Of a DNA stretch of 46,701 bases, positions 21,578-44,400 are shown piece after piece. Position 1 is the stretch's first letter, and each line of letters opens with the position of its first letter. This stretch comes from Escherichia phage YDC107_1. The notes beneath the pieces are model-generated. The model was not told the origin of the DNA. It did no database searches and saw only the letters and a program-made list of their open reading frames with translations. A program made the translations under genes and the position numbers. Location of the stretch: the sequence record CP025712.1; one strand, 5' to 3'.

Positions 21578-21582
21578 AGTTT

Positions 21583-27087: not shown

Positions 27088-27118
27088 GTTGTTATTATAA
27101 ACAATAAACAACAATTAA

Positions 27119-27156: not shown

Positions 27157-27178
27157 GAAGATCATTTATGATTACAGT

Positions 27179-27775
27179 ATGAAAACACGAGGCGAACGAC
27201 TGAAAGCACGCCGTTTAGAGATGAAGCTGACGTTGCGAGAAGTTGCTGAGGCTGTCGATATCTCTATAGCAGGCGTCCAAAACTTAGAACGTGGCGACGT
27301 AATGCCGTCACTGGAGATAGGTATTGCCCTGGCTAAGTGCTTACGCAAGCCAGTGCATTGGGTGCTATATGGGACAGAATATGACCCTGATCGCATTCCT
27401 GTTATTGGCACAACTGAAAGTGGGCCGGATGAAGAGTGGAAGCCGGGACAGGTTCCAAATACTGAGCGATTCCTGCCATTCATCAGCCAGCGCAATACTG
27501 TGTATGCGTTAACTATCAGCAATCTTACGCAGGGAAACTATCAGCCAGGCGATTTTCTCCTGGTCGATTCTGCGCTGGAACTGGTCCCCGGCGAGGATGT
27601 TCTGGTTCGTGATACTGCAGGAAATATCACTATCCAGCGCCTGGCCCGTTTTGATGATGAAAATTACTATCTGGATGGAACAAACTCACAACGCGCCATC
27701 TTCAGGAAAAGCGATCTTGAATTTGTTCACCAAATAGTCGGAACGATCAAATCATTCATGGTTGAGGGTAGATGA
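27179..27775 (+). CDS. cB: Prophage repressor (N15 CB / lambda CI analogue): HTH plus degenerate LexA-like C-terminal domain
   Basis: 198 aa; N-terminal HTH LTLREVAEAVDISIAGVQNLERG. Confidence 0.8.
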   Translation: MKTRGERLKARRLEMKLTLREVAEAVDISIAGVQNLERGDVMPSLEIGIALAKCLRKPVHWVLYGTEYDPDRIPVIGTTESGPDEEWKPGQVPNTERFLPFISQRNTVYALTISNLTQGNYQPGDFLLVDSALELVPGEDVLVRDTAGNITIQRLARFDDENYYLDGTNSQRAIFRKSDLEFVHQIVGTIKSFMVEGR

Positions 27776-27869
27776 CTTAATACGGGGTTTATTGTTTGCT
27801 GTAAATCTGGTTTAATGCAGGGCATATGTTCTGTGGGTTGACTCAGGTTACAGCAGCAGAAAAAAGACG

Positions 27870-27905
27870 AAAAAAAACCCGAGTCGGCAAACTCGGGTCC
27901 TTTTC
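27870..27905. terminator. Bidirectional rho-independent terminator after the repressor gene
   Basis: A-run, CCCGAGT-CGGCAAA-ACTCGGG, then T-run. Confidence 0.5.
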
Positions 27906-28020
27906 AGGAAGCAGCCACAACAACGCGACAGATTCCGTCAATTCAAGATGCGTTTATTGTGGCTGCTCCTGCGGATTTTTTCAACCCGAAAAAACATAAT
28001 TCGCATGGAATGGCTAAAAA

Positions 28021-31000
28021 ATGACATTAAACGATTTCTATGCGGATCGCTTTGGCAGCGATCCGTTCTCGCTAATTGAAGCAGCACGGGATGAACTAAC
28101 CGAGCTGGCACAGATGGCTGGTATCAACTGGCCTGCCTGTTCCGACAACATCCAACTCAACCCTCGCGGGGGGGTTGAGCGTTACTCTTCATACAATAAA
28201 ACATCTCCAGAAGCTCTCGAAAAGAGCCTGAAAGGACGCGTAGAAATTTACTCCAGGCTGGAACACAGCAAAGGGATTGATTACCCGTTCATTAACTTCG
28301 TCCATAAAGGCAGCGATGCTGGCTCATGGAGCGGTTTCTCCTTCCTGTTTTCTGAATATCGCCGTGAGCAACAACGGAATAATGCGACCGTGGTCGCACA
28401 ACCGGAAGAAGAACGGGAAAGAATAGAACGTCAGGCCGAAGCACGTCGTCGCCGTGAAGAACAAAAACGAATTAATGACCTGAAAAACAACCAAATGGAC
28501 CATGAACGTTTGCTGGGATGGCTGGCATTCCACAGCGCGTGGGAACATGCTCAGGCTGAAGACGGCTCATGGCCATATGCGATTAAAAAAGGTATTCGTG
28601 ACGTTTTTAGTTCATGTGATGTGCGTCGCGTGACCAGTCACGACAGTGCGAAATGGAGCCGGGGGCCAACCACATATATGGCTATCCCTCTGGCTCACCT
28701 GGACGGTCGTTATGATGGTCGTATTGTGGGTTGGCAGCGAATCGACAAACAAGGTGGGAAATACCAGACCAGCGCAGTAACCAGCGGCGATTTCGTCGGT
28801 GCCTGCTTTGTTATCGGTGAGCTGAAAGGGGCGCAAAACATCGCTGTTACAGAAGGTTTTGCTACTGGTGCATCCATCTGGCTTGCCACGAAAAAAGATA
28901 AACGCTTTGACGCGGTGGTTGTCGCTGTATCCGCTAACAACATGGTTCATGTTGTGGAACAACTGGTAAACATGTACCCGGCGGCAAAAATCACCTGCGC
29001 ACTGGATAATGACCGGAAATCTGCCACAGAAGGAAAAGGGAATACCGGCCTGCGGACTGGCTATGAAATCTTATCGAAATTCAACGATGTCCGCTGCGTC
29101 TACCCAACTTTTGAAGACGATCCGCAAATGGAGTGCAGTGACTTCAACGACCTGCACAAACTACGTGGACTTCGTGAAACAGCACGTCAACTATTTGCAA
29201 CAGCAAACCGCCTGAAAACCGGCACTGATTTGCTATCTCTGACGCTCAACCGCCTGAAGACAATTAAGCGGGATAACCGTCGTACTTTTGCCAAAGAGCT
29301 GCTGAGAGCGGTGGATATTGGCATGCTAACCTGTCCGGTTCCTAACAGTCCGTCAGATTTGTTTAACATGTTCTGTATCGTTCTGCGTGAAATGGGGCTG
29401 GAAAATATCTATCGCGCTACGGTAAAAGACCACATTGCCCGTCGCCTGAATAAAAAATGCCGTATTGCCCAGGCTCCGCGCTCTTTCAGCGAACGCATAA
29501 CTGATCCCAATAAACGCCCTCAACATATCACCTATAAGCGTTTTGAAACTTCGGTAATGACCTATGACGTCCTGAAGTACGTGCAATCACTACAGGGGAT
29601 CGTCATCGTTCGTGCTGGTATGGGTTCCGGCAAATCTACTGGATTGTTACGACCGTTAATGCATAGCTCAGAACGCGGTATCTCTGTAGCTCACCGTGTT
29701 TCCCTTATTGGTGGCCTGTGGGAAATGATGACTGAAGGAAAAGGTGTAAAAGCCGATATCCTGCACTATCAGGACCCTGGCTATCAGGAAATGGCTCCAT
29801 ACGCCAGTAAACTGACCATCTGCATAAACTCGATTGTTAAAAACTGCTGGCAACCGTTGATGCGCCAGCACGACTATTTTGGCTTTGACGAGGCCACACA
29901 AGGGCTACGTGCCGTTCTTTCCGGTCGGGCTATGGAAAACCCAGTGGCTGTATTCAATACGCTAATTGACGCGCTGGCCAGAACGGAACAACACCCAATA
30001 ATGGTGGATGCTGATGCGAACGATCTGCTGGTTGACCTGGCTGAACTGGCTATGAAACGCCGTGAAGAACTAGGTTTACCGGCATGGCTGCAGATCCACG
30101 TAATTGAATTACCTGTTGATGTTCGCAACCGCGAAACAGGTGAGCCAATCCGGGTTTTTTATACAGAAAAAGATCGCATCATGACCGAGGTGGTGAAAGC
30201 TGTATCGGATGGCGAAAAAATCATGTTGGCCACCGACAGCTCCACCTTTGCAGAAGATGTGACCGCCACCCTGAGAATGCATTTTCCTGGTAAGAAATTT
30301 CTGTGCGTAAACCAGAAAAGCAAACAGGATGAAGAAGTCGATGCTTTTACCAACCAGCCAAAAGTAATGGTGATGAAATACGATGGACTGATCTACAGCC
30401 CGTCGATTTCCTCCGGGGTGTCATTTGAGAAAAAACATTTTGACCGTCATTTCGGCATGTTCTGCGGTGAAGTTGTGCCCAGCGACGCAGTGCAAATGCT
30501 ACGCCGCGACCGTACAGCAAAAGAATTTATTATCGGCTTTGATAAAGCTCGTGCAAAACGCGAGACTGATCCGCAAAAAATAGAACGTGCATTCGCCCAG
30601 GCATTACTTGCTACCGCAGGCATGAACGGTGAACTGACGGATGTCGTTTTCGATGGCGACCGTATATCAATGGGGGTGGCCAATACCGACTTTACCAGGA
30701 TGAAAATTAAAGCTGCCGCTATTGAAGCGTCTGCGCGTAACGACTACGCCAGCAACATGATCTGCATCATGCACAGCGACGGTTATAAGGTATCGCCATT
30801 AGCTACTGATTATGCCGCAAATGATTTTGGTAAAGAGCTGCGCAAAGAAGCGCGGGATATTGTGTGGGAACAGACGCTGGATCTGCACCTCAATACAGAG
30901 ACACCAGAAGAATCAGAGCGTGAAGAACTACTAAAAAAACGTGCGCTAACGCTTGAAGAACAGGCAAAACTTGTCCGCTGGGATATTGAGAACGAACTGA

Positions 31001-32004
31001 AACTACCGGTTGAAGAAGGCACGCTGAAATTCTATTTCGATGGTGCTCGAGACAAAATTCGCCGTTATGAAACGATGCTGCTTGATGAAGTCACAGCCCG
31101 TCGTTATGACCGTGAAGAAGCGGCTATCAATTTTACATACGCATACCGCCAGACCGGACAGTGGCAATATTTTGTGGTGACCGCGATGACACGCGAGCAG
31201 GCTGATGATGTATTCAAAGCGAAATTTCCGGGAATAATCGACTACAAGGTAAAAGCCACCCCAGCTGTTGAGGTCGGCATGCGCGGATTCTATGCGCTTA
31301 AATCAGCAACTCTCCGGCAGTATTTTATCGACTGCGGTATCGACCCTGAAACTATGACTGGCGAAGCGACGCAGGAACGCCTTAAGTTCGCTCGAGATAA
31401 TCTCATGACAGCAGAACGCCGTGACCTGTTGAATAACGTTCTGCGCATTGGTGGTTTTATGACACCAAAAGGGAAGCCTAAAGTGCCGGAAGCACTGTTT
31501 AAAAACATCTGCGACTCTCTCGGCCTAAAAACAGGAAAACGTCGCGGCAGAGATGGCGATAAGCGCCCGACATTGCGTTTTGTTGAGCCTGAGTCTGTAG
31601 CATTTATGCTTGATATTCTTACGCAACGTCAGGAGGACGGTATGACGTTGAAAGCTCGCAAGGCAGAAAAATCAACGACCGAAGTGGATCGCGATTTGTC
31701 ATTAAATATATATATGAATGGTGAAACGCGATCCACAAACACGGAGGAACAGGATCCCCCTCGTTCAGCTATATCACAGGCTTTGGCTGTATTGCCGGTG
31801 GCTGTTCCTGAGTCCTGGGCGATGAGTGCTCTGCCATCAGCCGAACTGGAATCTATCAGGGGGTGGTCAGTTGACAGCATCGCATACACGTTTGCAGCCC
31901 TTTATATGACTGAGTTTATGGATTTGCTGTCCGGTCATGAGATTAAGTTGCTGAAGGCTTTTATAGGCCCACGACATGCCAGCGATGAGTTTTGTGTAGT
32001 TTAG
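28021..32004 (+). CDS. repA: Replication protein: Toprim primase fused to a helicase/NTPase (N15 RepA / P4 alpha-like)
   Basis: 1327 aa; Toprim motifs (VTEGFATGASIW, ALDNDRKSATEGKG); Walker A GMGSGKST; Walker B-like FDEATQ. Confidence 0.9.
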   Translation: MTLNDFYADRFGSDPFSLIEAARDELTELAQMAGINWPACSDNIQLNPRGGVERYSSYNKTSPEALEKSLKGRVEIYSRLEHSKGIDYPFINFVHKGSDAGSWSGFSFLFSEYRREQQRNNATVVAQPEEERERIERQAEARRRREEQKRINDLKNNQMDHERLLGWLAFHSAWEHAQAEDGSWPYAIKKGIRDVFSSCDVRRVTSHDSAKWSRGPTTYMAIPLAHLDGRYDGRIVGWQRIDKQGGKYQTSAVTSGDFVGACFVIGELKGAQNIAVTEGFATGASIWLATKKDKRFDAVVVAVSANNMVHVVEQLVNMYPAAKITCALDNDRKSATEGKGNTGLRTGYEILSKFNDVRCVYPTFEDDPQMECSDFNDLHKLRGLRETARQLFATANRLKTGTDLLSLTLNRLKTIKRDNRRTFAKELLRAVDIGMLTCPVPNSPSDLFNMFCIVLREMGLENIYRATVKDHIARRLNKKCRIAQAPRSFSERITDPNKRPQHITYKRFETSVMTYDVLKYVQSLQGIVIVRAGMGSGKSTGLLRPLMHSSERGISVAHRVSLIGGLWEMMTEGKGVKADILHYQDPGYQEMAPYASKLTICINSIVKNCWQPLMRQHDYFGFDEATQGLRAVLSGRAMENPVAVFNTLIDALARTEQHPIMVDADANDLLVDLAELAMKRREELGLPAWLQIHVIELPVDVRNRETGEPIRVFYTEKDRIMTEVVKAVSDGEKIMLATDSSTFAEDVTATLRMHFPGKKFLCVNQKSKQDEEVDAFTNQPKVMVMKYDGLIYSPSISSGVSFEKKHFDRHFGMFCGEVVPSDAVQMLRRDRTAKEFIIGFDKARAKRETDPQKIERAFAQALLATAGMNGELTDVVFDGDRISMGVANTDFTRMKIKAAAIEASARNDYASNMICIMHSDGYKVSPLATDYAANDFGKELRKEARDIVWEQTLDLHLNTETPEESEREELLKKRALTLEEQAKLVRWDIENELKLPVEEGTLKFYFDGARDKIRRYETMLLDEVTARRYDREEAAINFTYAYRQTGQWQYFVVTAMTREQADDVFKAKFPGIIDYKVKATPAVEVGMRGFYALKSATLRQYFIDCGIDPETMTGEATQERLKFARDNLMTAERRDLLNNVLRIGGFMTPKGKPKVPEALFKNICDSLGLKTGKRRGRDGDKRPTLRFVEPESVAFMLDILTQRQEDGMTLKARKAEKSTTEVDRDLSLNIYMNGETRSTNTEEQDPPRSAISQALAVLPVAVPESWAMSALPSAELESIRGWSVDSIAYTFAALYMTEFMDLLSGHEIKLLKAFIGPRHASDEFCVV
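28383..28398. repeat. 16-bp core TGCGACCGTGGTCGCA, copy 5, inside repA
   Basis: Outer bases not complementary (16 of 18); mirrored copy at 45080-45097. Confidence 0.5.
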
Positions 32005-32021
32005 AGGGTAGAAGCGTGGGA

Positions 32022-32288
32022 ATGATGCAAGAGTGCCTCGTTTTGATTGAAGGGTATGATCCGTATGTTGTTAACGTCAGCAGAATGGATACTGGCTATA
32101 GCGACTACAAAACTGGTCGTGAACTGCCGTTCACCATCATCAGGATGAATAGCTTTGGCGATGATGATGCTGTTTATTGCTGTATAGCCAGCGATAAAAA
32201 CATGGAAGACCGGACAGATGAAGCCCGTATGCTATTGAGGAAATATAAGGTAAAGCCGTTATCAGAGAATAACGCTGAGAGGGGTTAA
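32022..32288 (+). CDS. Hypothetical protein
   Basis: From ATG MMQECLVLIEGYDP (ORF-track start 31992 is TTG). Confidence 0.45.
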   Translation: MMQECLVLIEGYDPYVVNVSRMDTGYSDYKTGRELPFTIIRMNSFGDDDAVYCCIASDKNMEDRTDEARMLLRKYKVKPLSENNAERG

Positions 32289-32290
32289 AA

Positions 32291-32686
32291 ATGGCAGTTC
32301 AATCATACAAATACGAATCCCCTTTGGATAAGGGATACATTCGTATCAAGTTAAGTCGTTCTCAGCATAAGGCTATTTTTAAGGTAAGGAAAATTCGCAT
32401 ATTGGATGCGTATGCGTATTACTACAACGGTGAAAATGTTGTTGTTGAACACTTTCTTGCACGATGGTTTGTAGCTCTGATTTTTGTCCCTCTCCTGTTA
32501 ATTGGTACTTTTGTGGATGGTTTTCCTAGTACATGGCGGGAGATAAAGAAAGGCCTATTCCCGCGTAAGTACGGCAGATTTTCGCAAGATAGCTGGCGAG
32601 TTATACCTGGTAAACATTCTGTGGATGAGCAGCCGATTGTTGATTACTGGTTGAAGCATATGGCTGATGCTAAAAAAGTTGATTGA
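32291..32686 (+). CDS. Hypothetical membrane protein
   Basis: 131 aa with SD GAGAGGGG; TM segment WFVALIFVPLLLIGTFV. Confidence 0.5.
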   Translation: MAVQSYKYESPLDKGYIRIKLSRSQHKAIFKVRKIRILDAYAYYYNGENVVVEHFLARWFVALIFVPLLLIGTFVDGFPSTWREIKKGLFPRKYGRFSQDSWRVIPGKHSVDEQPIVDYWLKHMADAKKVD

Positions 32687-32704
32687 GTTGTGGAAGGAGT
32701 ATTT

Positions 32705-32929
32705 ATGAACTGTAACAAAAATGAAGAAACTCGCCTGGTTTGGACGGTAGTAATCGGAGATAAAGAGGGCGGTGAAGAGCCTCATTTTGATTATTCTGTG
32801 GCTTTGCAGGCTCTCATCCTTGAAGCGCAGAGATACCAACAAGAGATGCAGAAGAACCCTCAACTGGAACCTCGACCAATTGGCCTATTCTGCGAGCGAG
32901 TATCAGCGGCGGAACTCCCTGATATCTGA
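32705..32929 (+). CDS. Hypothetical small acidic protein
   Basis: MNCNKNEETRLVWTVVIG…; SD GGAAGGA. Confidence 0.45.
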   Translation: MNCNKNEETRLVWTVVIGDKEGGEEPHFDYSVALQALILEAQRYQQEMQKNPQLEPRPIGLFCERVSAAELPDI

Positions 32930-33120
32930 TGCCCTCCAACAGCTGATCAGGTTCTGATCAGTTAGTAAAGCAAACTATAAAAACACCTGTCCCCGTGACT
33001 GGTCACGGGGTAAAATGTCTTTGCAAATTATTGACGTGTGCGTCGTTTTGACGGTAAAGTTACTTCGCTGCGGTAAATCCCGTAGCCGGGACTCTCAACC
33101 CCGAAATCCGAACGACGCAC

Positions 33121-33143
33121 AACACGCGCCAGCGTGTTTTTTT
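33121..33143 (+). terminator. Rho-independent terminator ending a short untranslated transcript upstream of the anti-repressor operon
   Basis: AACACGC-GCCA-GCGTGTT followed by a T-run. Confidence 0.45.
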
Positions 33144-33309
33144 GTGTGTATGAGCCTGCGCATATCCGAATTATGGTGGCTCAGGTGGGGCAGCCGAAAG
33201 GCTGGCCGGTGTCGTTTGGGCCGGTGTTGAGAACCCCGCTTGGGCTACCACCCCATAGAGATTCTCAACTCTGGTGGTAGCACTGTTTTACCAAACAAGA
33301 GTGCATACC

Positions 33310-33474
33310 ATGTTCAAATTCAAATTTGCGGCAGTCGTTCGCACAGACAAAAAGTCACACATCCATCATCTTTCCACCATCGCGTCATCTGAACGGGAAG
33401 CTCGTCGCCAGTTCGCCAGCCGGTTTGTCCTGGTATTGTCTGCCCGTATTCCGGTGCGCGAGGTGGCTGCATGA
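33310..33474 (+). CDS. Small protein, first gene of the anti-repressor operon (Icd-like position)
   Basis: 54 aa from MFKFKFAAVVRTDKK. Confidence 0.35.
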   Translation: MFKFKFAAVVRTDKKSHIHHLSTIASSEREARRQFASRFVLVLSARIPVREVAA

Positions 33475-33704
33475 ATCAGGTAAAAATGAACACTGTTGGC
33501 CTGCTGGAATCGTTGGATGAACGTCTGGCTCAGGTCTATGCGCTTGTGTCATCAGCCCATCGTACAGTCTCCAGTTGTGAGGCGTCGATTTATCTCTCAG
33601 AAGCCGGGAAGCTCCTTCAAATCGCGTGTGAGTTGACACACAAAGCACAGGGGTATTCAGCATCTCTCTCGTCGCAATTGCAGCACAATAAGGAGGCCAA
33701 ATGA
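33471..33704 (+). CDS. Hypothetical protein (anti-repressor operon)
   Basis: 77 aa, SD GAGGTGG, ATGA-coupled to neighbours. Confidence 0.45.
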   Translation: MNQVKMNTVGLLESLDERLAQVYALVSSAHRTVSSCEASIYLSEAGKLLQIACELTHKAQGYSASLSSQLQHNKEAK

Positions 33705-34477
33705 GCGCGTTAGCTGTATTTTCGTTTCAGGAAGAGCATCAGGTTCGTGTAGTGATGATTGATAGCGATCCGTGGTTTGTTGCATCTGATGTGTGTATGG
33801 CGGCGGGTATTGATTCTACGGCCATTAGAAAGTTGGATGAGGACGAAAAGGGTCTGCATTTAATGCAGACCCCTGGCGGATACCAGAATGTTTCAATCAT
33901 CAAGGAGTCAGGTCTATACACCCTAATCCTCCGCTGCCGTGACGCGGTGAAGCAAGGCACAACAGCTTGGCGGTTTCGCAAATGGGTAACGAACGAAGTC
34001 TTGCCCTCTATTCGCAAAAATGGAGAGTACGTTTACGTTGAGCCAGAGCCAATGCGAGCAGCAGAGCCGTTGAACTGGAGGCAGAAAGAGTATCTGCGAG
34101 GGCTGATTAACGATATTGCACAAAGTTTTCAATACCGAAATGCCTGGATTAGCGGTGTATGGTTGGCTTTGCGTCGGGCGTGTCGTAATCCATCCCCGAA
34201 CCCCATAACTGTTGATGATTTGCCAGCAATAACGGCAGAACTGCGACGGATTTTGACGGCTGCTGAGTCGGCATTGGGGAACATGCGCACGTATGAACGA
34301 GAGTTGTTGCGTGATGTTGTTCGTGGTGGTAGGCGGAGTATGTCGTGTGGTGATTTGCCCATCACCGATATCAACTCTGATCTGGAAAAGGCGTTACCCG
34401 CGCATTTTGAACTGGCAGTTCAAAAACTTGAGCAGTTGTCCGCGCAGCTAAAGCCAGCAGAAATCACCAATAAATAG
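33701..34477 (+). CDS. ant: Anti-repressor with Bro-N domain
   Basis: 258 aa; N-terminus FSFQEEHQVRVVMIDSDPWFVASDVCMAAGI… typical of Bro-N/Ant; SD AGGAGG. Confidence 0.75.
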   Translation: MSALAVFSFQEEHQVRVVMIDSDPWFVASDVCMAAGIDSTAIRKLDEDEKGLHLMQTPGGYQNVSIIKESGLYTLILRCRDAVKQGTTAWRFRKWVTNEVLPSIRKNGEYVYVEPEPMRAAEPLNWRQKEYLRGLINDIAQSFQYRNAWISGVWLALRRACRNPSPNPITVDDLPAITAELRRILTAAESALGNMRTYERELLRDVVRGGRRSMSCGDLPITDINSDLEKALPAHFELAVQKLEQLSAQLKPAEITNK

Positions 34478-34649
34478 GGTTGGCCAGCCCGAATTGATGC
34501 CCTTCTTAGTGAGGGGAAGCCTCGCAGTCTGGGCGGTGATGTCTGTGGTTGCAGCCGCGTTTCCTCCGTTACTTCTGCCCTTTGCAGGGGGCAGGCGAGG
34601 CAGGCCACATAACAAGGCACCGATTAATTCGGTGCCTTTAACGTATGCT

Positions 34650-36551
34650 TTAGCCGAAATATGTCAGCCATGCTAACTGCATTGCTGACATGGGGCTGTT
34701 TGCACTGCCTGACCACGCATAATTCTGGCCATTATAATGAAACTCAACAACGTATGAGCCATCACCAATATTTCTCACAGGCTTAAATACCGGCTTAGAT
34801 ACAGGTGAAGAAGGCGCGGGCGGTTGCTGTTCTTCTACGCTCTCTTCCTCTTCCTCTTCCTCTTCCTCTATCTCAATTTCGTCGTCATCCAGATCGTCAT
34901 CCTCTGATAATTCATCCGTCTGTTCAGGTATTGCTTCCAGCTCTTCTTCGTCAGGCATAACGATTTCTGGAGAATCTATTTTCAGCTGCCATTGTCCATT
35001 TTCGCCAACAAATTGCCCCAGAGCATCAGCAGCAAATTCCAGGTATCGACTAATCATTGTAGGGCTAAATTTGAATGCTCTTAGAGTGCTGTTCGTGATT
35101 TTTATAGAGGGGTCATGCTCTACCAGCTGCTTAACTGTGTTATGCAGACGAACCCCGGCATCTCCTCTGGCGAATCCTGGCATTTCGTCATCAAGCTGCT
35201 GCAATGCTTCCAGCCTGGTATTTTCGTTTCCAGTATTTGGCCTCCATGTCTTTGAGAAGTTGGCCAGCTTGAATTGCTTATAGTGTAATTGAGTGTTTTC
35301 ATCGTCATGGCCTAAAATTTCCATAAAGAAAACATCCTCATCTACGTTTTTCCAACGAGGATCTACGCGGAAAAACATTTCATACGCAATACGGGCATAA
35401 ATAGCACGACTATCTTTATAAACACGGCGGTCATCTTTGAAAAATGATTTAACCCACGGGTTAAAAGCCTTTGCTAATATGGCATTAATCCGTCCGTTTT
35501 CAGAGCGTGTGTCGTTATCTCCATAACCTTTAACGACATCATCAAAATCAGATGCTGCCGGGCATGAGCGAAGTACATTTATTAAATAAACAAATGTTTT
35601 TGCTTCGCATAATGTATATATTTTTCTGGTTATATCATCAGAAGTTCTTTTTTTTGCTTGGCCTAAAAAATCAACGGTATACTTACCAGAAACAGTAAAT
35701 GTACCTTGATACATAATCTCAATCATTCGTCTTCCTGACAATGCAGCAAGTGCAAATGCCAAAGGAGCCATACCTGAACGAGTGTTTAGATTATTTAATG
35801 TAGCAGGGCTATTTATAATATCGTAAATAGCTTGCATATATTTAGGGTAATCAATGACCACCACGTTACGTTTCTTATTGTGCAGAACGTCTGCCCATCG
35901 TTGCTGGATAGATGCGCGTTCGGCAGGGCTTAGTTGAAGATGATAGAGAATCTCATGGTTAACTTTTAGCTGATTCAACTCCTCAAGCAAGGCAGATCCT
36001 TGCTGTAGTAATTTATATAAATAATCGCGCTTATCTTTCCAGTTATCGCTAGTTAAATCAGAAATGGCGAATTGCCACTCTTTATATTTATTTGATAATT
36101 TTAATAACTTATTATGACTTTTGTTATCACCAATTCTGATATTAGATAAATCTTCTGATAAAGGGAGAATTAATTTTAATTTTGCCTGTAAAGCTGACAT
36201 TCTCTGGCGAATATCGGCAGCAGGTAGAGAAAGCCATGACAATAGCTCCTCATTATATAAAGGATACTTTTCAGATAGGCGATGTATATTTTTTTCAAAG
36301 CTATGATGAAGTTTATCATCAAACCGTTTTCTGGCCCTGCTCATATAGGTATTGAATGTGTTGGCTGTAATTCTTTTTTCTAATCCTTTCCCCCTAAACT
36401 TTCGCTTGTCATTAAATAATGCATTTTTAAACTTTAATGCAACAGCCTTTATTTTTTTTGTTTTCTCCCCTTGAGGACGGTCAGAGTTATCTATTGACTC
36501 AACATCGCTAACAAGTGAGTTTATTAATTCACCGATTTTTACTTTGCTCAT
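34650..36551 (-). CDS. telN: Protelomerase (TelN-like telomere resolvase)
   Basis: 633 aa; N-terminus MSKVKIGELINSLVSDVESIDNSDRPQGEKTKKIK… and length resemble N15 TelN as I recall; acidic C-terminal stretch; start 190 bp from the telRL-like palindrome. Confidence 0.88.
   Translation of the reverse strand: MSKVKIGELINSLVSDVESIDNSDRPQGEKTKKIKAVALKFKNALFNDKRKFRGKGLEKRITANTFNTYMSRARKRFDDKLHHSFEKNIHRLSEKYPLYNEELLSWLSLPAADIRQRMSALQAKLKLILPLSEDLSNIRIGDNKSHNKLLKLSNKYKEWQFAISDLTSDNWKDKRDYLYKLLQQGSALLEELNQLKVNHEILYHLQLSPAERASIQQRWADVLHNKKRNVVVIDYPKYMQAIYDIINSPATLNNLNTRSGMAPLAFALAALSGRRMIEIMYQGTFTVSGKYTVDFLGQAKKRTSDDITRKIYTLCEAKTFVYLINVLRSCPAASDFDDVVKGYGDNDTRSENGRINAILAKAFNPWVKSFFKDDRRVYKDSRAIYARIAYEMFFRVDPRWKNVDEDVFFMEILGHDDENTQLHYKQFKLANFSKTWRPNTGNENTRLEALQQLDDEMPGFARGDAGVRLHNTVKQLVEHDPSIKITNSTLRAFKFSPTMISRYLEFAADALGQFVGENGQWQLKIDSPEIVMPDEEELEAIPEQTDELSEDDDLDDDEIEIEEEEEEEEESVEEQQPPAPSSPVSKPVFKPVRNIGDGSYVVEFHYNGQNYAWSGSANSPMSAMQLAWLTYFG
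34842..34868. repeat. (CTCTTC)n hexanucleotide repeat inside telN, encoding a poly-Glu tract
   Basis: Four and a half tandem CTCTTC units; mirrored at about 38616-38642. Confidence 0.6.
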
Positions 36552-36714
36552 CTTTCCTCTCCTGATTATCCGCTCGGATTATCGTAACACAATTTGAGAA
36601 TAAGATAACTAATAACGCGTTAACTTAGGCACAAACTAACAGAACACAATAACGGATAATAAATAAAAACACAATATCGGAACGTTAAAATTTGTTCCTT
36701 GACTTTGTTCTGAA

Positions 36715-36770
36715 AATCAGCACATAATTTCCCATTATACGCGCGTATAATGGGAAATTATGTGCTGATT
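36715..36770. other. telRL-like telomere resolution site; centre of dyad symmetry between 36742 and 36743
   Basis: AATCAGCACATAATTT-CCCATTATACGCGCGTATAATGGG-AAATTATGTGCTGATT, same architecture as N15 telRL as I recall. Confidence 0.8.
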
Positions 36771-36933
36771 TTCAGAACAAAGTCAAGGAACAAATTTTAA
36801 CGTTCCGATATTGTGTTTTTATTTATTATCCGTTATTGTGTTCTGTTAGTTTGTGCCTAAGTTAACGCGTTATTAGTTATCTTATTCTCAAATTGTGTTA
36901 CGATAATCCGAGCGGATAATCAGGAGAGGAAAG

Positions 36934-38833
36934 ATGAGCAAAGTAAAAATCGGTGAATTAATAAACTCACTTGTTAGCGATGTTGAGTCAATAGATAACT
37001 CTGACCGTCCTCAAGGGGAGAAAACAAAAAAAATAAAGGCTGTTGCATTAAAGTTTAAAAATGCATTATTTAATGACAAGCGAAAGTTTAGGGGGAAAGG
37101 ATTAGAAAAAGAATTACAGCCAACACATTCAATACCTATATGAGCAGGGCCAGAAAACGGTTTGATGATAAACTTCATCATAGCTTTGAAAAAAATATAC
37201 ATCGCCTATCTGAAAAGTATCCTTTATATAATGAGGAGCTATTGTCATGGCTTTCTCTACCTGCTGCCGATATTCGCCAGAGAATGTCAGCTTTACAGGC
37301 AAAATTAAAATTAATTCTCCCTTTATCAGAAGATTTATCTAATATCAGAATTGGTGATAACAAAAGTCATAATAAGTTATTAAAATTATCAATAAATATA
37401 AAGAGTGGCAATTCGCCATTTCTGATTTAACTAGCGATAACTGGAAAGATAAGCGCGATTATTTATATAAATTACTACAGCAAGGATCTGCCTTGCTTGA
37501 GGAGTTGAATCAGCTAAAAGTTAACCATGAGATTCTCTATCATCTTCAACTAAGCCCTGCCGAACGCGCATCTATCCAGCAACGATGGGCAGACGTTCTG
37601 CACAATAAGAAACGTAACGTGGTGGTCATTGATTACCCTAAATATATGCAAGCTATTTACGATATTATAAATAGCCCTGCTACATTAAATAATCTAAACA
37701 CTCGTTCAGGTATGGCTCCTTTGGCATTTGCACTTGCTGCATTGTCAGGAAGACGAATGATTGAGATTATGTATCAAGGTACATTTACTGTTTCTGGTAA
37801 GTATACCGTTGATTTTTTAGGCCAAGCAAAAAAAAGAACTTCTGATGATATAACCAGAAAAATATATACATTATGCGAAGCAAAAACATTTGTTTATTTA
37901 ATAAATGTACTTCGCTCATGCCCGGCAGCATCTGATTTTGATGATGTCGTTAAAGGTTATGGAGATAACGACACACGCTCTGAAAACGGACGGATTAATG
38001 CCATATTAGCAAAGGCTTTTAACCCGTGGGTTAAATCATTTTTCAAAGATGACCGCCGTGTTTATAAAGATAGTCGTGCTATTTATGCCCGTATTGCGTA
38101 TGAAATGTTTTTCCGCGTAGATCCTCGTTGGAAAAACGTAGATGAGGATGTTTTCTTTATGGAAATTTTAGGCCATGACGATGAAAACACTCAATTACAC
38201 TATAAGCAATTCAAGCTGGCCAACTTCTCAAAGACATGGAGGCCAAATACTGGAAACGAAAATACCAGGCTGGAAGCATTGCAGCAGCTTGATGACGAAA
38301 TGCCAGGATTCGCCAGAGGAGATGCCGGGGTTCGTCTGCATAACACAGTTAAGCAGCTGGTAGAGCATGACCCCTCTATAAAAATCACGAACAGCACTCT
38401 AAGAGCATTCAAATTTAGCCCTACAATGATTAGTCGATACCTGGAATTTGCTGCTGATGCTCTGGGGCAATTTGTTGGCGAAAATGGACAATGGCAGCTG
38501 AAAATAGATTCTCCAGAAATCGTTATGCCTGACGAAGAAGAGCTGGAAGCAATACCTGAACAGACGGATGAATTATCAGAGGATGACGATCTGGATGACG
38601 ACGAAATTGAGATAGAGGAAGAGGAAGAGGAAGAGGAAGAGAGCGTAGAAGAACAGCAACCGCCCGCGCCTTCTTCACCTGTATCTAAGCCGGTATTTAA
38701 GCCTGTGAGAAATATTGGTGATGGCTCATACGTTGTTGAGTTTCATTATAATGGCCAGAATTATGCGTGGTCAGGCAGTGCAAACAGCCCCATGTCAGCA
38801 ATGCAGTTAGCATGGCTGACATATTTCGGCTAA
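36934..38833 (+). pseudogene. Mirror copy of telN, broken by two 1-bp homopolymer contractions
   Basis: ORF fragments 36934..37143, 37140..37430 and 37493..38833; first break is A6 to A5 at about 37107. Confidence 0.7.
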
Positions 38834-39005
38834 AGCATACGTTAAAGGCACCGAATTAATCGGTGCCTTGTTATGTGGCCTGCCTCGCCTGCCCCCTGCA
38901 AAGGGCAGAAGTAACGGAGGAAACGCGGCTGCAACCACAGACATCACCGCCCAGACTGCGAGGCTTCCCCTCACTAAGAAGGGCATCAATTCGGGCTGGC
39001 CAACC

Positions 39006-39782
39006 CTATTTATTGGTGATTTCTGCTGGCTTTAGCTGCGCGGACAACTGCTCAAGTTTTTGAACTGCCAGTTCAAAATGCGCGGGTAACGCCTTTTCCA
39101 GATCAGAGTTGATATCGGTGATGGGCAAATCACCACACGACATACTCCGCCTACCACCACGAACAACATCACGCAACAACTCTCGTTCATACGTGCGCAT
39201 GTTCCCCAATGCCGACTCAGCAGCCGTCAAAATCCGTCGCAGTTCTGCCGTTATTGCTGGCAAATCATCAACAGTTATGGGGTTCGGGGATGGATTACGA
39301 CACGCCCGACGCAAAGCCAACCATACACCGCTAATCCAGGCATTTCGGTATTGAAAACTTTGTGCAATATCGTTAATCAGCCCTCGCAGATACTCTTTCT
39401 GCCTCCAGTTCAACGGCTCTGCTGCTCGCATTGGCTCTGGCTCAACGTAAACGTACTCTCCATTTTTGCGAATAGAGGGCAAGACTTCGTTCGTTACCCA
39501 TTTGCGAAACCGCCAAGCTGTTGTGCCTTGCTTCACCGCGTCACGGCAGCGGAGGATTAGGGTGTATAGACCTGACTCCTTGATGATTGAAACATTCTGG
39601 TATCCGCCAGGGGTCTGCATTAAATGCAGACCCTTTTCGTCCTCATCCAACTTTCTAATGGCCGTAGAATCAATACCCGCCGCCATACACACATCAGATG
39701 CAACAAACCACGGATCGCTATCAATCATCACTACACGAACCTGATGCTCTTCCTGAAACGAAAATACAGCTAACGCGCTCAT
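39006..39782 (-). CDS. Mirror copy of the Bro-N anti-repressor gene (intact)
   Basis: Identical 258-aa translation to 33701..34477. Confidence 0.5.
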   Translation of the reverse strand: MSALAVFSFQEEHQVRVVMIDSDPWFVASDVCMAAGIDSTAIRKLDEDEKGLHLMQTPGGYQNVSIIKESGLYTLILRCRDAVKQGTTAWRFRKWVTNEVLPSIRKNGEYVYVEPEPMRAAEPLNWRQKEYLRGLINDIAQSFQYRNAWISGVWLALRRACRNPSPNPITVDDLPAITAELRRILTAAESALGNMRTYERELLRDVVRGGRRSMSCGDLPITDINSDLEKALPAHFELAVQKLEQLSAQLKPAEITNK

Positions 39783-40012
39783 TTGGCCTCCTTATTGTGC
39801 TGCAATTGCGACGAGAGAGATGCTGAATACCCCTGTGCTTTGTGTGTCAACTCACACGCGATTTGAAGGAGCTTCCCGGCTTCTGAGAGATAAATCGACG
39901 CCTCACAACTGGAGACTGTACGATGGGCTGATGACACAAGCGCATAGACCTGAGCCAGACGTTCATCCAACGATTCCAGCAGGCCAACAGTGTTCATTTT
40001 TACCTGATTCAT
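39779..40012 (-). CDS. Mirror copy of the 77-aa anti-repressor-operon gene
   Basis: Identical translation to 33471..33704. Confidence 0.4.
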   Translation of the reverse strand: MNQVKMNTVGLLESLDERLAQVYALVSSAHRTVSSCEASIYLSEAGKLLQIACELTHKAQGYSASLSSQLQHNKEAK

Positions 40013-40173
40013 GCAGCCACCTCGCGCACCGGAATACGGGCAGACAATACCAGGACAAACCGGCTGGCGAACTGGCGACGAGCTTCCCGTTCAGATGACG
40101 CGATGGTGGAAAGATGATGGATGTGTGACTTTTTGTCTGTGCGAACGACTGCCGCAAATTTGAATTTGAACAT
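40009..40173 (-). CDS. Mirror copy of the Icd-position small gene
   Basis: Identical translation to 33310..33474. Confidence 0.3.
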   Translation of the reverse strand: MFKFKFAAVVRTDKKSHIHHLSTIASSEREARRQFASRFVLVLSARIPVREVAA

Positions 40174-40553
40174 GGTATGCACTCTTGTTTGGTAAAACAG
40201 TGCTACCACCAGAGTTGAGAATCTCTATGGGGTGGTAGCCCAAGCGGGGTTCTCAACACCGGCCCAAACGACACCGGCCAGCCTTTCGGCTGCCCCACCT
40301 GAGCCACCATAATTCGGATATGCGCAGGCTCATACACACAAAAAAACACGCTGGCGCGTGTTGTGCGTCGTTCGGATTTCGGGGTTGAGAGTCCCGGCTA
40401 CGGGATTTACCGCAGCGAAGTAACTTTACCGTCAAAACGACGCACACGTCAATAATTTGCAAAGACATTTTACCCCGTGACCAGTCACGGGGACAGGTGT
40501 TTTTATAGTTTGCTTTACTAACTGATCAGAACCTGATCAGCTGTTGGAGGGCA

Positions 40554-40778
40554 TCAGATATCAGGGAGTTCCGCCGCTGATACTCGCTCGCAGAATAGGC
40601 CAATTGGTCGAGGTTCCAGTTGAGGGTTCTTCTGCATCTCTTGTTGGTATCTCTGCGCTTCAAGGATGAGAGCCTGCAAAGCCACAGAATAATCAAAATG
40701 AGGCTCTTCACCGCCCTCTTTATCTCCGATTACTACCGTCCAAACCAGGCGAGTTTCTTCATTTTTGTTACAGTTCAT
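40554..40778 (-). CDS. Mirror copy of the small acidic protein gene
   Basis: Identical translation to 32705..32929. Confidence 0.35.
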   Translation of the reverse strand: MNCNKNEETRLVWTVVIGDKEGGEEPHFDYSVALQALILEAQRYQQEMQKNPQLEPRPIGLFCERVSAAELPDI

Positions 40779-40796
40779 AAATACTCCTTCCACAAC

Positions 40797-41191
40797 TCAA
40801 TCAACTTTTTTAGCATCAGCCATATGCTTCAACCAGTAATCAACAATCGGCTGCTCATCCACAGAATGTTTACCAGGTATAACTCGCCAGCTATCTTGCG
40901 AAAATCTGCCGTACTTACGCGGGAATAGGCCTTTCTTTATCTCCCGCCATGTACTAGGAAAACCATCCACAAAAGTACCAATTAACAGGAGAGGGACAAA
41001 ATCAGAGCTACAAACCATCGTGCAAGAAAGTGTTCAACAACAACATTTTCACCGTTGTAGTAATACGCATACGCATCCAATATGCGAATTTTCCTTACCT
41101 TAAAAATAGCCTTATGCTGAGAACGACTTAACTTGATACGAATGTATCCCTTATCCAAAGGGGATTCGTATTTGTATGATTGAACTGCCAT
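40797..41191 (-). pseudogene. Mirror copy of the membrane-protein gene, frameshifted
   Basis: T5 to T4 contraction splits it into ORFs 40797..41018 and 40982..41191. Confidence 0.6.
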
Positions 41192-41193
41192 TT

Positions 41194-41460
41194 TTAACCC
41201 CTCTCAGCGTTATTCTCTGATAACGGCTTTACCTTATATTTCCTCAATAGCATACGGGCTTCATCTGTCCGGTCTTCCATGTTTTTATCGCTGGCTATAC
41301 AGCAATAAACAGCATCATCATCGCCAAAGCTATTCATCCTGATGATGGTGAACGGCAGTTCACGACCAGTTTTGTAGTCGCTATAGCCAGTATCCATTCT
41401 GCTGACGTTAACAACATACGGATCATACCCTTCAATCAAAACGAGGCACTCTTGCATCAT
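41194..41460 (-). CDS. Mirror copy of the hypothetical gene 32022..32288
   Basis: Identical translation. Confidence 0.35.
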   Translation of the reverse strand: MMQECLVLIEGYDPYVVNVSRMDTGYSDYKTGRELPFTIIRMNSFGDDDAVYCCIASDKNMEDRTDEARMLLRKYKVKPLSENNAERG

Positions 41461-41477
41461 TCCCACGCTTCTACCCT

Positions 41478-44400
41478 CTAAACTACACAAAACTCATCGC
41501 TGGCATGTCGTGGGCCTATAAAAGCCTTCAGCAACTTAATCTCATGACCGGACAGCAAATCCATAAACTCAGTCATATAAAGGGCTGCAAACGTGTATGC
41601 GATGCTGTCAACTGACCACCCCCTGATAGATTCCAGTTCGGCTGATGGCAGAGCACTCATCGCCCAGGACTCAGGAACAGCCACCGGCAATACAGCCAAA
41701 GCCTGTGATATAGCTGAACGAGGGGGATCCTGTTCCTCCGTGTTTGTGGATCGCGTTTCACCATTCATATATATATTTAATGACAAATCGCGATCCACTT
41801 CGGTCGTTGATTTTTCTGCCTTGCGAGCTTTCAACGTCATACCGTCCTCCTGACGTTGCGTAAGAATATCAAGCATAATGCTACAGACTCAGGCTCAACA
41901 AAACGCAATGTCGGGCGCTTATCGCCATCTCTGCCGCGACGTTTTCCTGTTTTTAGGCCGAGAGAGTCGCAGATGTTTTTAAACAGTGCTTCCGGCACTT
42001 TAGGCTTCCCTTTTGGTGTCATAAAACCACCAATGCGCAGAACGTTATTCAACAGGTCACGGCGTTCTGCTGTCATGAGATTATCTCGAGCGAACTTAAG
42101 GCGTTCCTGCGTCGCTTCGCCAGTCATAGTTTCAGGGTCGATACCGCAGTCGATAAAATACTGCCGGAGAGTTGCTGATTTAAGCGCATAGAATCCGCGC
42201 ATGCCGACCTCAACAGCTGGGGTGGCTTTTACCTTGTAGTCGATTATTCCCGGAAATTTCGCTTTGAATACATCATCAGCCTGCTCGCGTGTCATCGCGG
42301 TCACCACAAAATATTGCCACTGTCCGGTCTGGCGGTATGCGTATGTAAAATTGATAGCCGCTTCTTCACGGTCATAACGACGGGCTGTGACTTCATCAAG
42401 CAGCATCGTTTCATAACGGCGAATTTTGTCTCGAGCACCATCGAAATAGAATTTCAGCGTGCCTTCTTCAACCGGTAGTTTCAGTTCGTTCTCAATATCC
42501 CAGCGGACAAGTTTTGCCTGTTCTTCAAGCGTTAGCGCACGTTTTTTTAGTAGTTCTTCACGCTCTGATTCTTCTGGTGTCTCTGTATTGAGGTGCAGAT
42601 CCAGCGTCTGTTCCCACACAATATCCCGCGCTTCTTTGCGCAGCTCTTTACCAAAATCATTTGCGGCATAATCAGTAGCTAATGGCGATACCTTATAACC
42701 GTCGCTGTGCATGATGCAGATCATGTTGCTGGCGTAGTCGTTACGCGCAGACGCTTCAATAGCGGCAGCTTTAATTTTCATCCTGGTAAAGTCGGTATTG
42801 GCCACCCCCATTGATATACGGTCGCCATCGAAAACGACATCCGTCAGTTCACCGTTCATGCCTGCGGTAGCAAGTAATGCCTGGGCGAATGCACGTTCTA
42901 TTTTTTGCGGATCAGTCTCGCGTTTTGCACGAGCTTTATCAAAGCCGATAATAAATTCTTTTGCTGTACGGTCGCGGCGTAGCATTTGCACTGCGTCGCT
43001 GGGCACAACTTCACCGCAGAACATGCCGAAATGACGGTCAAAATGTTTTTTCTCAAATGACACCCCGGAGGAAATCGACGGGCTGTAGATCAGTCCATCG
43101 TATTTCATCACCATTACTTTTGGCTGGTTGGTAAAAGCATCGACTTCTTCATCCTGTTTGCTTTTCTGGTTTACGCACAGAAATTTCTTACCAGGAAAAT
43201 GCATTCTCAGGGTGGCGGTCACATCTTCTGCAAAGGTGGAGCTGTCGGTGGCCAACATGATTTTTTCGCCATCCGATACAGCTTTCACCACCTCGGTCAT
43301 GATGCGATCTTTTTCTGTATAAAAAACCCGGATTGGCTCACCTGTTTCGCGGTTGCGAACATCAACAGGTAATTCAATTACGTGGATCTGCAGCCATGCC
43401 GGTAAACCTAGTTCTTCACGGCGTTTCATAGCCAGTTCAGCCAGGTCAACCAGCAGATCGTTCGCATCAGCATCCACCATTATTGGGTGTTGTTCCGTTC
43501 TGGCCAGCGCGTCAATTAGCGTATTGAATACAGCCACTGGGTTTTCCATAGCCCGACCGGAAAGAACGGCACGTAGCCCTTGTGTGGCCTCGTCAAAGCC
43601 AAAATAGTCGTGCTGGCGCATCAACGGTTGCCAGCAGTTTTTAACAATCGAGTTTATGCAGATGGTCAGTTTACTGGCGTATGGAGCCATTTCCTGATAG
43701 CCAGGGTCCTGATAGTGCAGGATATCGGCTTTTACACCTTTTCCTTCAGTCATCATTTCCCACAGGCCACCAATAAGGGAAACACGGTGAGCTACAGAGA
43801 TACCGCGTTCTGAGCTATGCATTAACGGTCGTAACAATCCAGTAGATTTGCCGGAACCCATACCAGCACGAACGATGACGATCCCCTGTAGTGATTGCAC
43901 GTACTTCAGGACGTCATAGGTCATTACCGAAGTTTCAAAACGCTTATAGGTGATATGTTGAGGGCGTTTATTGGGATCAGTTATGCGTTCGCTGAAAGAG
44001 CGCGGAGCCTGGGCAATACGGCATTTTTTATTCAGGCGACGGGCAATGTGGTCTTTTACCGTAGCGCGATAGATATTTTCCAGCCCCATTTCACGCAGAA
44101 CGATACAGAACATGTTAAACAAATCTGACGGACTGTTAGGAACCGGACAGGTTAGCATGCCAATATCCACCGCTCTCAGCAGCTCTTTGGCAAAAGTACG
44201 ACGGTTATCCCGCTTAATTGTCTTCAGGCGGTTGAGCGTCAGAGATAGCAAATCAGTGCCGGTTTTCAGGCGGTTTGCTGTTGCAAATAGTTGACGTGCT
44301 GTTTCACGAAGTCCACGTAGTTTGTGCAGGTCGTTGAAGTCACTGCACTCCATTTGCGGATCGTCTTCAAAAGTTGGGTAGACGCAGCGGACATCGTTGA

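Follow-up and report, generated by a model that had tools for sequence, protein, structure and literature searches.

Phage-plasmids of the N15-like kind have been described in the literature for Escherichia and Shigella, and among the closest known systems for the element considered here are phage N15 (Ravinvirus N15, NC_001901), with its protelomerase TelN, and phiKO2, with its protelomerase TelK. The TelK target contains the hexamer CGCGCG between its scissile positions, and the known protelomerases all cut 6 bp apart (PMC3558466). TelN loses its catalytic activity when Y425 is replaced by phenylalanine (Y425F; PMC12624138). In assemblies of ONT reads, hairpin telomeres are documented to show up as wraparounds or inverted duplications (bioRxiv 10.1101/2025.07.18.665644), and the Sci Adv telomere-phage paper makes no mention of assembly fold-backs. 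The element type is itself already known, the lineage having been deposited as PhiR46_1 (PV340565.1, host E. coli ECOR13) and around 30 plasmid records from Escherichia, Shigella and E. albertii/fergusonii, which include NZ_CP135212.1, NZ_CP151021.1 and NZ_CP101200.1. Near-identical deposited elements are already annotated with telL/telR sites and a protelomerase. A literature search found no paper on PhiR46_1.

The DNA analysed here, referred to as the window, is a stretch of 46,701 nucleotides from CP025712.1 that runs from J through the head genes, cos, the immunity region, repA and telN to the telL apex (Table 1), from where the sequence turns back upon itself. The element is a routine member of the described N15-like phage-plasmids of Escherichia and Shigella, and the unique part of the window is nearly all collinear with PhiR46_1 and its plasmid relatives at 96–99% nucleotide identity. 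A first-pass annotation, made from the letters alone, had recognised a linear phage-plasmid of the N15 type whose structural genes are lambda-like, a view that is borne out by the location of every E. coli match on a plasmid. The 46.7 kb do not make up the whole element. The mirror copy leaves 36.7 kb of unique sequence in the window, and the remainder of J, which is cut by position 1, together with lom, stf, sopAB and telR, lies outside it. The interpretation that we favour, with a probability of roughly 0.85, is that of an N15-type linear phage-plasmid in which the fold-back is the untrimmed assembly representation of a real telL hairpin.

Table 1. Positions of the features in the window (1 to 46,701).
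Feature	Position	Strand	Remarks
Lambda/N15-type head and tail genes	1..17128	minus	terminase small subunit to incomplete tail-tip J
Terminase small subunit	16583-17128	minus	
Lambda-like cos cohesive-end 12-mer (putative)	17306..17317	minus	GGGCGGAAGGCG; upstream of terminase small subunit
Five dispersed N15-type SopB centromere sites	within 18301..28398		TGCGACCNNGGTCGCA, 16 nt each
Late antiterminator Q	26166-26876	minus	Pfam Phage_antiter_Q 4e-84; 66% identity to N15 gp40
cro	26866-27114	minus	Pfam P22_Cro 2.5e-22; 87% identity to N15 gp39
cB-like prophage repressor	27179..27775	plus	198 aa; HTH + S24-like
repA, multifunctional replication protein	28021..32004	plus	1327 aa; primase/helicase type
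Anti-repressor (N15 immA-type) locus	33067..34477	plus	
isrK-like RNA	33067-33142	plus	Rfam RF01695 71.8 bits, above gathering
C4 antisense RNA	33169-33255	plus	Rfam RF01394 54.9 bits, above gathering
antC-like	33223-33471	plus	77% identity to N15 gp32
gp31-like	33471-33704	plus	62% identity to N15 gp31
AntA-like Bro-N protein	33701-34477	plus	258 aa; 74% identity to N15 gp30; Pfam Bro-N
telN, protelomerase (telomere resolvase), intact copy	34650..36551	minus	633 aa; ORF list, Pfam and PDB
telL-proximal leader, tel half-site to telN	36552..36715	minus	presumed telN promoter/regulatory region; TTGTGTT-type repeats
telL half of tel site	36716..36742		27 nt, ATCAGCACATAATTTCCCATTATACGC; common to telL and telR in relatives
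Central CGCGCG hexamer	36740..36745		hairpin apex; predicted position of 6-bp staggered TelN cuts
Mirror-image copy of 26776-36742	36743..46701		telL hairpin wraparound; no extra gene content

The minus-strand open reading frame that had been likened to TelN was recovered with exactly the same coordinates, length and start, and its assignment is upheld by four Pfam domains, the match to a TelK structure and comparisons with N15, phiKO2 and PY54. The product, which begins MSKVKIGELINSLVSDVESIDNSDRPQGEKTKKIK, contains all four TelK domains (TelK_N, TelK_muzzle, ResT-TelK_cat and TelK_stirrup), each scoring far above the 27–28-bit cut-offs (PF16684 88.7, PF22853 139.5, PF20849 170.8 and PF20818 163.7 bits), and residues 1–536 are matched by TelK (PDB 2V6E) with an E value of 7.9e-295. 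No NCBIfam model matched the protein, the identity of which was settled by Pfam and PDB. It is 99.2% identical to the PhiR46_1 protein, 77–79% to N15 TelN, 72.9–77% to phiKO2 TelK and 43% to the PY54 enzyme. Alignment places Y424 opposite the catalytic tyrosine Y425 of TelN and TelK, whilst R275, K300 and H415 align with R275, K300 and H416 of the two enzymes, which we take, from the TelK structure paper, to be active-site residues. The equivalents of these three residues in TelA have been listed (PMC3558466). The protein also has an acidic run, and its C-terminal block is conserved. The protein is a genuine protelomerase of the TelN/TelK type, for which a cleaving–joining activity is predicted.

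The leader that separates telN from the tel half-site probably has a regulatory role, as suggested by blocks that are conserved with N15 and phiKO2 in the alignment and by short repeats of the form AACACAAT(A/T)(A/T)CGGA. Promoter and terminator scans around telN returned 10 matches against 6.5±2.5 in shuffled sequences, which is no excess, and the promoter-like matches amount to consensus only.

Upstream of telN, the first-pass annotation had described a 56-bp palindrome with the architecture of telRL, in which inverted 16-mers flank a core. Bases 36715–36770 are indeed palindromic, and contain CCCATTATACGCGCGTATAATGGG, but the 56-bp limits are arbitrary, as the palindrome is perfect for 368 nt per arm before the first gap and extends, with gaps, for about 10 kb. 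Its symmetry axis falls between 36742 and 36743, on the dyad of the 22-bp telO core, and the spacer between the repeats is zero. The 11-nt half-core (36732–36742) is identical in N15 and phiKO2, and the N15 annotation gives ‘cut at 24802/3’. The limits of the telL half-site were set by comparison with the true telRL in CP151021 and with the rejoined ends of PhiR46_1. A cognate palindromic target with a 6-bp centre adjoins telN, although only its telL half is native in the window.

Were this palindrome the native telRL that the phage or circular form carries next to telN, the arrangement shown by the virion map of N15, it would be expected to combine the N15/phiKO2 telO core with flanking repeats of the ATCAGCACA type, as it does, and the native tel site of the lineage does have flanking repeats. 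The 191 nt from the telN start codon (36551) to the axis would also suit such a site, as they match the corresponding spacings of N15 (192 nt) and phiKO2 (190 nt). However, telRL joins telN to sopA/parB on the far flank, as seen in CP151021 and N15, whereas here telN stands on both flanks within a mirror image of about 10 kb, of which the 16-mers are merely a part. Moreover, the true telRL of close relatives is a perfect palindrome over only 27+27 nt, after which the far flank leads to sopA/parB. The mirrored telN flank and the comparison with the true telRL of the relatives refute a native telRL, which keeps practically no probability. Since both flanks carry telN, the site represents an unfolded telL hairpin, with a replicated telLL junction as the less likely alternative. 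The window contains neither the telR arm nor its flank, and has no complete telRL; this reflects the incompleteness of the window or contig and does not count against the element type. At telR, the apex of a fold-back is predicted to read ...ATATCAGCACATAATTTCCCATTATACGC/GCG....

The right-hand part of the window, 36743–46701, is the reverse complement of 26776–36742 at 99.92% identity with 0 mismatches (9,959 and 9,967 nt in the two arms), and it continues to the window end. An inverted repeat of 19.9 kb rules out a chance origin. The arms differ by eight one-base deletions, all of which are in the right (outer) copy and in homopolymers of at least three bases, where 18% of the bases lie (0.18^8 ~ 1e-6). 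The mirror copy holds degraded versions of telN, the ant locus, repA, cB and cro, together with the start of Q, and telN, repA and cB appear in pieces. The second, frameshifted telN lies on the plus strand at 36934–38833 and is divided into ORFs of 69, 96 and 446 aa; it had been missed in the first-pass annotation and alters the meaning of the palindrome. No further fold-back or inverted repeat of at least 40 nt was found in the unique part at 1–26775.

Comparable structures are found amongst the public relatives. Six of the 18 matching E. coli RefSeq plasmid records fold back at the same site, pG749_3 does so at both telomeres, and CP088430.1 wraps round completely (2x), its two axes being spaced one unit length apart. 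Public E. coli plasmid records deposited as ‘circular’ include one of 62.6 kb with the same fold-back and a double-length wraparound of 91.5 kb. These records bear on the idea that the duplication is a generic long-read fold-back chimera (template followed by complement), or an assembler mis-join, with no link to a telomere. Such an origin would explain indel-only noise in one arm, as in a contig built from few long reads, as well as the arbitrary ends, which fall within J and within the mirrored Q. Chimeras would scatter, however, whereas the breakpoint lies to the base on the tel-site dyad and is identical in at least six independent public assemblies, with a corresponding one at telR, and an origin of this kind is considered extremely unlikely.

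It is also conceivable, at very long odds, that the window is a stable rearranged palindromic molecule in which the telN–repA end has been inversely duplicated and the sop/telR end lost. The window does lack sopAB and telR, and at 46.7 kb it is near the unit length of the relatives (45–48 kb). Nevertheless, a true duplication would not have homopolymer frameshifts in one arm only, both window ends fall inside genes, as truncation predicts, the loss of sopAB would destabilise the plasmid, and the molecule would keep an uncut TelN target alongside an intact telN.

A real duplex junction, either a replicated telLL or a head-to-head dimer still unresolved by TelN at extraction, is improbable. A telLL junction would have exactly the sequence of 36716–36769, and hairpin read-through and telLL yield the same product, such that sequence alone does not separate them. 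Yet the intact telN predicts efficient resolution, and hence a minority species, whereas every hairpin end can be read through. That the arms differ in indels only, and on one side only, suggests read or polishing noise on a wraparound of low coverage, and the both-telomere and full 2x ‘circle’ patterns in unrelated assemblies fit systematic read-through. That the duplication should be a real and abundant duplex, whether as an unresolved telLL intermediate or as a stable head-to-head derivative without sop and telR, appears highly improbable; if it were true, TelN resolution would be limiting or regulated in this host.

The read-through of a telL hairpin in a linear phage-plasmid is in keeping with the genomic context of the relatives. 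Across 5,426 complete E. coli genomes, every matching place (36/36) is on a plasmid and none is chromosomal. The reported absence of an integrase also stands, as no integrase or recombinase family match was obtained among the 19 non-structural ORFs and none is annotated in the 96–99% identical relatives, the structural block (1–17128) being judged via its collinearity with them. The fold-back provides positive evidence, at the level of sequence, of the linear-plasmid form, and its position exactly on the dyad indirectly indicates that hairpins (or replicated telomeres) were present in the sample. As the window ends inside J, without telR and sopAB, the second telomere and the partition genes of this element are inferred from the relatives at 96–99% identity, in which sopA and sopB are present.

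The replicon had been described as of primase–helicase type, which agrees with the finding of an N15 RepA homologue. The product is 76% identical to N15 gp37 RepA over 1–1321 and matches NCBIfam CyRepA1 with 255 bits (cut-off 200); in Pfam, Herpes_ori_bp scores 28.9 bits (cut-off 20) and Toprim_3 22.5 bits, under its cut-off of 27.2. The cB-like repressor has 78% identity to N15 gp38 CB and matches HTH_3, with Peptidase_S24 falling slightly under the cut-off. RelE/ParE is also present, with 92% identity to N15.

For partition, no recurring perfect palindromes of 12–16 nt were found as centromere candidates, and the SopB sites surfaced once a 2-nt spacer was allowed in the palindrome search. 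They start at 18301, 18521, 21561, 25940 and 28383, with a mirrored copy at 45081, giving six matches to the motif in the window against 0.01 expected. Exact copies number three in N15 and five in PhiR46_1. The core is the same as that of the N15 IR1–IR4 oligonucleotides (PMC7205306 Table 4).

The structural genes are collinear with those of PhiR46_1, Nu1-A-W-B-C-D-E-FI-FII-Z-U-V-G-T-H-M-L-K-I-J, at 96–98% identity, whilst TerL, the portal protein and MCP are 87–90% identical to those of N15. The exact N15 and lambda cos 12-mers are absent from the window, in which the cos-like site has another 12-mer. Its context, ...CTACG/GGGCGGAAGGCG/CGCGGGTTTTCGCTATTTATGAAAATTTTCC..., resembles lambda cos and shows 71% identity when aligned with the cos junction of N15. 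This 12-mer is the putative end of the virion genome, in which case the virion and plasmid maps would be circular permutations of each other.

If the homologous N15 and phiKO2 are a guide, the cos ends would join after infection, and a TelN dimer would bind telRL and make two cuts 6 bp apart around CGCGCG, forming a 3'-phosphotyrosine on Y424. Each half of telRL would then be refolded and resealed as a hairpin, to give telL beside telN and telR beside sopBA. RepA is likely to replicate the plasmid from an internal origin, with TelN resolving the replicated telomeres, and SopAB would partition it via the dispersed TGCGACCNNGGTCGCA sites. Lysogeny is probably controlled by CB, Cro, Q and the ant/C4-RNA locus. 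During sequencing, long reads may cross the closed telL hairpin, from which the assembler would leave a complementary-strand wraparound of 9,959 nt, and the eight homopolymer deletions of the outer copy can be understood as leftover read or polishing errors.

In practical terms, the 10-kb mirror image with its frameshifts, roughly one fifth of the window, calls for trimming at 36742 and is not to be read as extra genes or pseudogenes. The same artefact is represented by several public E. coli plasmid records labelled ‘circular, complete’ (61–92 kb), with the effect that databases give inflated sizes for these plasmids and list genes twice. An inverted duplication centred on a tel dyad also offers a cheap in-silico signature of hairpin-ended linear DNA.

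Within the lineage, the telL arm is identical to that of the PhiR46_1 group save for 1 nt in the first 70. Small module replacements distinguish the window from that group at 31832–32276, 32692–32945 and 33852–34588, and the AntA/Bro-N gene is full-length here (258 aa), whereas PhiR46_1 has a remnant of 54 aa. The PhiR46_1 record is trimmed from telL to telR, in contrast to the window, which is cut in J and has a 10-kb wraparound. N15 shares the gene order, the 22-bp telO core and the SopB-site core, but has only about 72–77% nucleotide identity to the window. The tail-tip and fibre genes here are lambda-like and not N15-like (34–38% identity to gp21), the cos 12-mer of N15 differs from the cos-like 12-mer, and the N15 tel keeps perfect symmetry for only 11 nt per half before three asymmetric positions, as opposed to 27+27 nt in the present relatives. 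In phiKO2, TelK is about 81% identical over residues 1–536, which cover all of the structured domains, and has the same active-site residues as well as CGCGCG at the centre of its target; identity falls to only about 50% in its C-terminal acidic linker and tail, and there are differences at several positions of the outer tel repeats. The fold-back finds its parallel in the linear replicons of Borrelia, a different organism with a different resolvase (ResT), where long reads cross the closed end and generate an inverted duplication centred on the apex that needs trimming; the wraparound described here is one-ended and 10 kb in length.

The palindrome beside the protelomerase gene extends well past the 56 bp (36715-36770) recorded in the first-pass annotation; that stretch is indeed palindromic, but its limits are arbitrary, as the mirrored sequence runs on to 46701. 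Scanned for inverted repeats, 36400-37100 proved to consist entirely of two arms with 100% complementarity and no spacer, and in an alignment of the full window the reverse complement of 26776..36742 (the left copy) corresponds to 36743..46701 (the right copy) with 99.92% identity, 0 mismatches and 8 gaps. The perfect palindrome is 368 nt per arm and its axis lies between 36742 and 36743, the midpoint of CGCGCG. Only 36,742 nt of the supposed 46.7 kb of content are unique, and a second protelomerase gene copy is found on the plus strand, split into ORFs of 69, 96 and 446 aa.

At each of the 8 places where the arms differ, the right-hand copy lacks one base of a homopolymer run of at least three bases; bases in such runs make up 18%, giving a probability of about 0.18^8 = 1e-6 that all eight would fall there by chance. 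Since the deletions are one-sided and homopolymer-confined, with the ORFs for TelN (633 aa, as in the close relative Escherichia phage PhiR46_1, PV340565.1), RepA (1327 aa) and CB (198 aa) all intact in the left copy and telN, repA and cB fragmented in the right, the differences are sequencing or polishing errors, not divergence. Window 1-36753 follows PhiR46_1 from 37155 to 1, and window 36732-46701 then follows it from 1 to 9554. Because this mapping reverses direction at the axis, the sequence enters the telL end, the hairpin end beside telN, and returns along the other strand, and the site is not telRL, the joined site.

Five tel sites were compared, each oriented with telN to the right, including two genuine examples of telRL: that of NZ_CP151021.1, an E. 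coli plasmid deposited as circular, and that of PhiR46_1 with both ends rejoined. In these the perfect palindrome ends at 27 nt per half (ATCAGCACATAATTTCCCATTATACGC followed by GCG...) and sopA/parB is reached through the left flank, whereas the N15 and phiKO2 sites are perfect for 11 and 14 nt per half, respectively. The 22-bp core CCATTATACGCGCGTATAATGG is common to all five. The telN-side arm of the window differs from those of its relatives at 1 of 70 nt, and the place of the ‘sop side’ of telRL is taken by the telN side in mirror image, not by sopA/parB. Only two structures explain the sequence, a telL hairpin that has been read through or a replicated telL junction (telLL), the latter kind of inverted-repeat junction being the resolvase's normal substrate in replication (PMC3558466). 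Either requires a linear hairpin-plasmid lifestyle, because virion or circular DNA would read telN-telRL-sopA instead.

Read-through of the covalently closed telL hairpin is favoured, since the error pattern suits a poorly polished wraparound, the window ends lie inside genes, the same fold-back recurs in public assemblies, and Borrelia hairpin telomeres behave alike in ONT assemblies, where they appear as ‘inverted duplications’ or ‘wraparound’ with an apex that lacks Illumina coverage (bioRxiv 10.1101/2025.07.18.665644). The ends are not natural, as position 1 falls within the tail-tip gene J and 46701 within the mirrored Q gene. A generic fold-back chimera, unrelated to the telomere, is unlikely, given that the breakpoint sits on the tel dyad to the base and is repeated in independent assemblies.

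Among 5,426 complete E. coli genomes, 17 contain matches to a 1-kb query spanning the axis, on 18 plasmid records in all. Six of the 18 include both arms of the junction in full and have two protelomerase annotations, and in the others the match stops 21-27 nt beyond the axis (true telRL) or at the record end. Records with the protelomerase twice around a tel axis are NZ_CP014491.1, CP088430.1, NZ_LT906558.1, NZ_CP126957.1, NZ_CP019258.1, NZ_LR883007.1 and NZ_CP031108.1. The two examined in detail are both flagged circular. The first, pG749_3 (NZ_CP014491.1, 62.6 kb), has fold-backs at both telomeres (1-13175 and 47361-62572); both are self-complementary at 99.8-99.96%, nearly every difference is an indel, and the outer copies are frameshifted. 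The second, CP088430.1 (91.5 kb), wraps around completely to double length and contains hundreds of indels, and its tel cores at 22,682 and 68,112 are one unit length apart. The double-protelomerase records are wraparound assemblies of a linear hairpin plasmid of ~46 kb, and plasmid sizes and gene counts are consequently inflated in databases.

The apexes of pG749_3 are CGTGCG (telR, the end beside sopBA, ~6588) and CGCACG (telL, ~54966), which are mutual reverse complements with a non-palindromic central dinucleotide (TG/CA). Exactly these two apexes would be expected if an asymmetric telRL centre were cut with a 6-bp stagger, which suggests a natural tolerance of a mismatched apex; the alternative is an assembly error at the apex.

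The 633-aa minus-strand ORF is exactly as first described. Its product, with the N-terminus MSKVKIGELINSLVSDVESIDNSDRPQGEKTKKIK, carries all four TelK-type Pfam domains (TelK_N, muzzle, ResT/TelK catalytic and stirrup) far above cut-offs, and its sole PDB match is phiKO2 TelK (2V6E, E 7.9e-295, residues 1-536). By tblastn it is 99.2% identical to its counterpart in PhiR46_1, 77.1% to N15 TelN, 72.9% to phiKO2, 43% to PY54 and 26-33% to those of Vibrio and Halomonas telomere phages. When four sequences are aligned, residues 1-536, which form the core, share 82.6% identity with N15 and 81.2% with phiKO2, compared with 50-59% in the acidic linker and C-terminal block; Y424 corresponds to Y425 of TelN and TelK, with R275, K300 and H415 likewise conserved. 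[quoted passage not shown] By homology, a TelN dimer would bind telRL, cut the two strands at positions 6 bp apart around CGCGCG via a Y424 phosphotyrosine and reseal each half into a hairpin; bidirectional replication by RepA would remake inverted-repeat junctions for TelN to resolve. A further role of TelN is to protect the hairpins against SbcCD (PMC12624138).

Features of the window outside the palindrome junction
Feature	Position	Strand	Details
telN	34650..36551	minus	
RelE/ParE toxin and HTH partner	22211-22809	plus	103 aa, 92% to N15 gp49; 95 aa, 86% to gp48
isrK-like sRNA	33067-33142	plus	Rfam 54.9 bits; mirrored 40341-40416 (minus)
C4 antisense RNA	33169-33255	plus	Rfam 71.8 bits; mirrored 40228-40314 (minus)
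Predicted SopB sites TGCGACCNNGGTCGCA	18301, 18521, 21561, 25940, 28383		16 nt each; mirrored copy 45081
Predicted lambda-like cos, 12-mer	17306-17317	minus	GGGCGGAAGGCG
Inverted repeat, 25 nt	17153-17209		between cos and terminase small-subunit gene
Direct repeat, ~188 nt	17372-17559, 18323-18509		87-98% identity; 951 nt apart
285-aa ORF	17680-18537	minus	no Pfam match
Segments absent from PhiR46_1	31832-32276, 32692-32945, 33852-34588		

The assignment to N15-type linear phage-plasmids, not integrated lambdoid prophages, stands: gene order in the unique part follows that of N15, neither the ORFs scanned for domains nor the annotation of relatives revealed an integrase, and there was no chromosomal match among the E. 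coli genomes searched. Identity to N15 is 76% for RepA (NCBIfam CyRepA1, 255 bits, cut-off 200), 78% for CB, 87% for Cro, 66% for Q, 74% for AntA, 62% for gp31, 77% for AntC, 74% for gp36, 82% for the Dam-like methylase and 87-90% for TerL, portal and MCP, but only 34-38% for the tail-tip protein. Pfam supports HTH/S24-like CB, P22_Cro, Q, Bro-N, Rz, lysozyme, N6/N4 methylase and 3'-5' exonuclease. The toxin-antitoxin pair, presumably with a plasmid-addiction function, is the most conserved non-structural module in common with N15. The two small RNAs lie just upstream of, or overlap, the antC-like gene of the anti-repressor locus, a switch of the P1/N15 type under RNA control.

The predicted SopB sites correspond to the core shared by IR1-IR4, the centromere sites of N15 (PMC7205306 Table 4). 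The window contains six copies, five of them in the unique part, where chance predicts 0.01; one is within repA, and sopAB is outside the window, past its truncated end. The ~188-nt repeats bracket the 285-aa ORF, and sites 18301 and 18521 lie at the right-hand repeat copy. The cohesive-end 12-mer differs from those of lambda (GGGCGGCGACCT) and N15 (GGGCGGCGTCCG).

The short segments absent from PhiR46_1 represent mosaic module exchange; the last yields an AntA/Bro-N anti-repressor of full length (258 aa), which has 74% identity to N15 gp30, whereas PhiR46_1 is annotated with a 54-aa remnant only. The lineage itself is already known, since PhiR46_1, with telL and telR annotated, and ~30 plasmid records with an annotated protelomerase have been deposited, and N15-like phage-plasmids with lambda-like structural genes are described in Escherichia and Shigella (bioRxiv 10.1101/2025.09.12.675607; PMC7969092).
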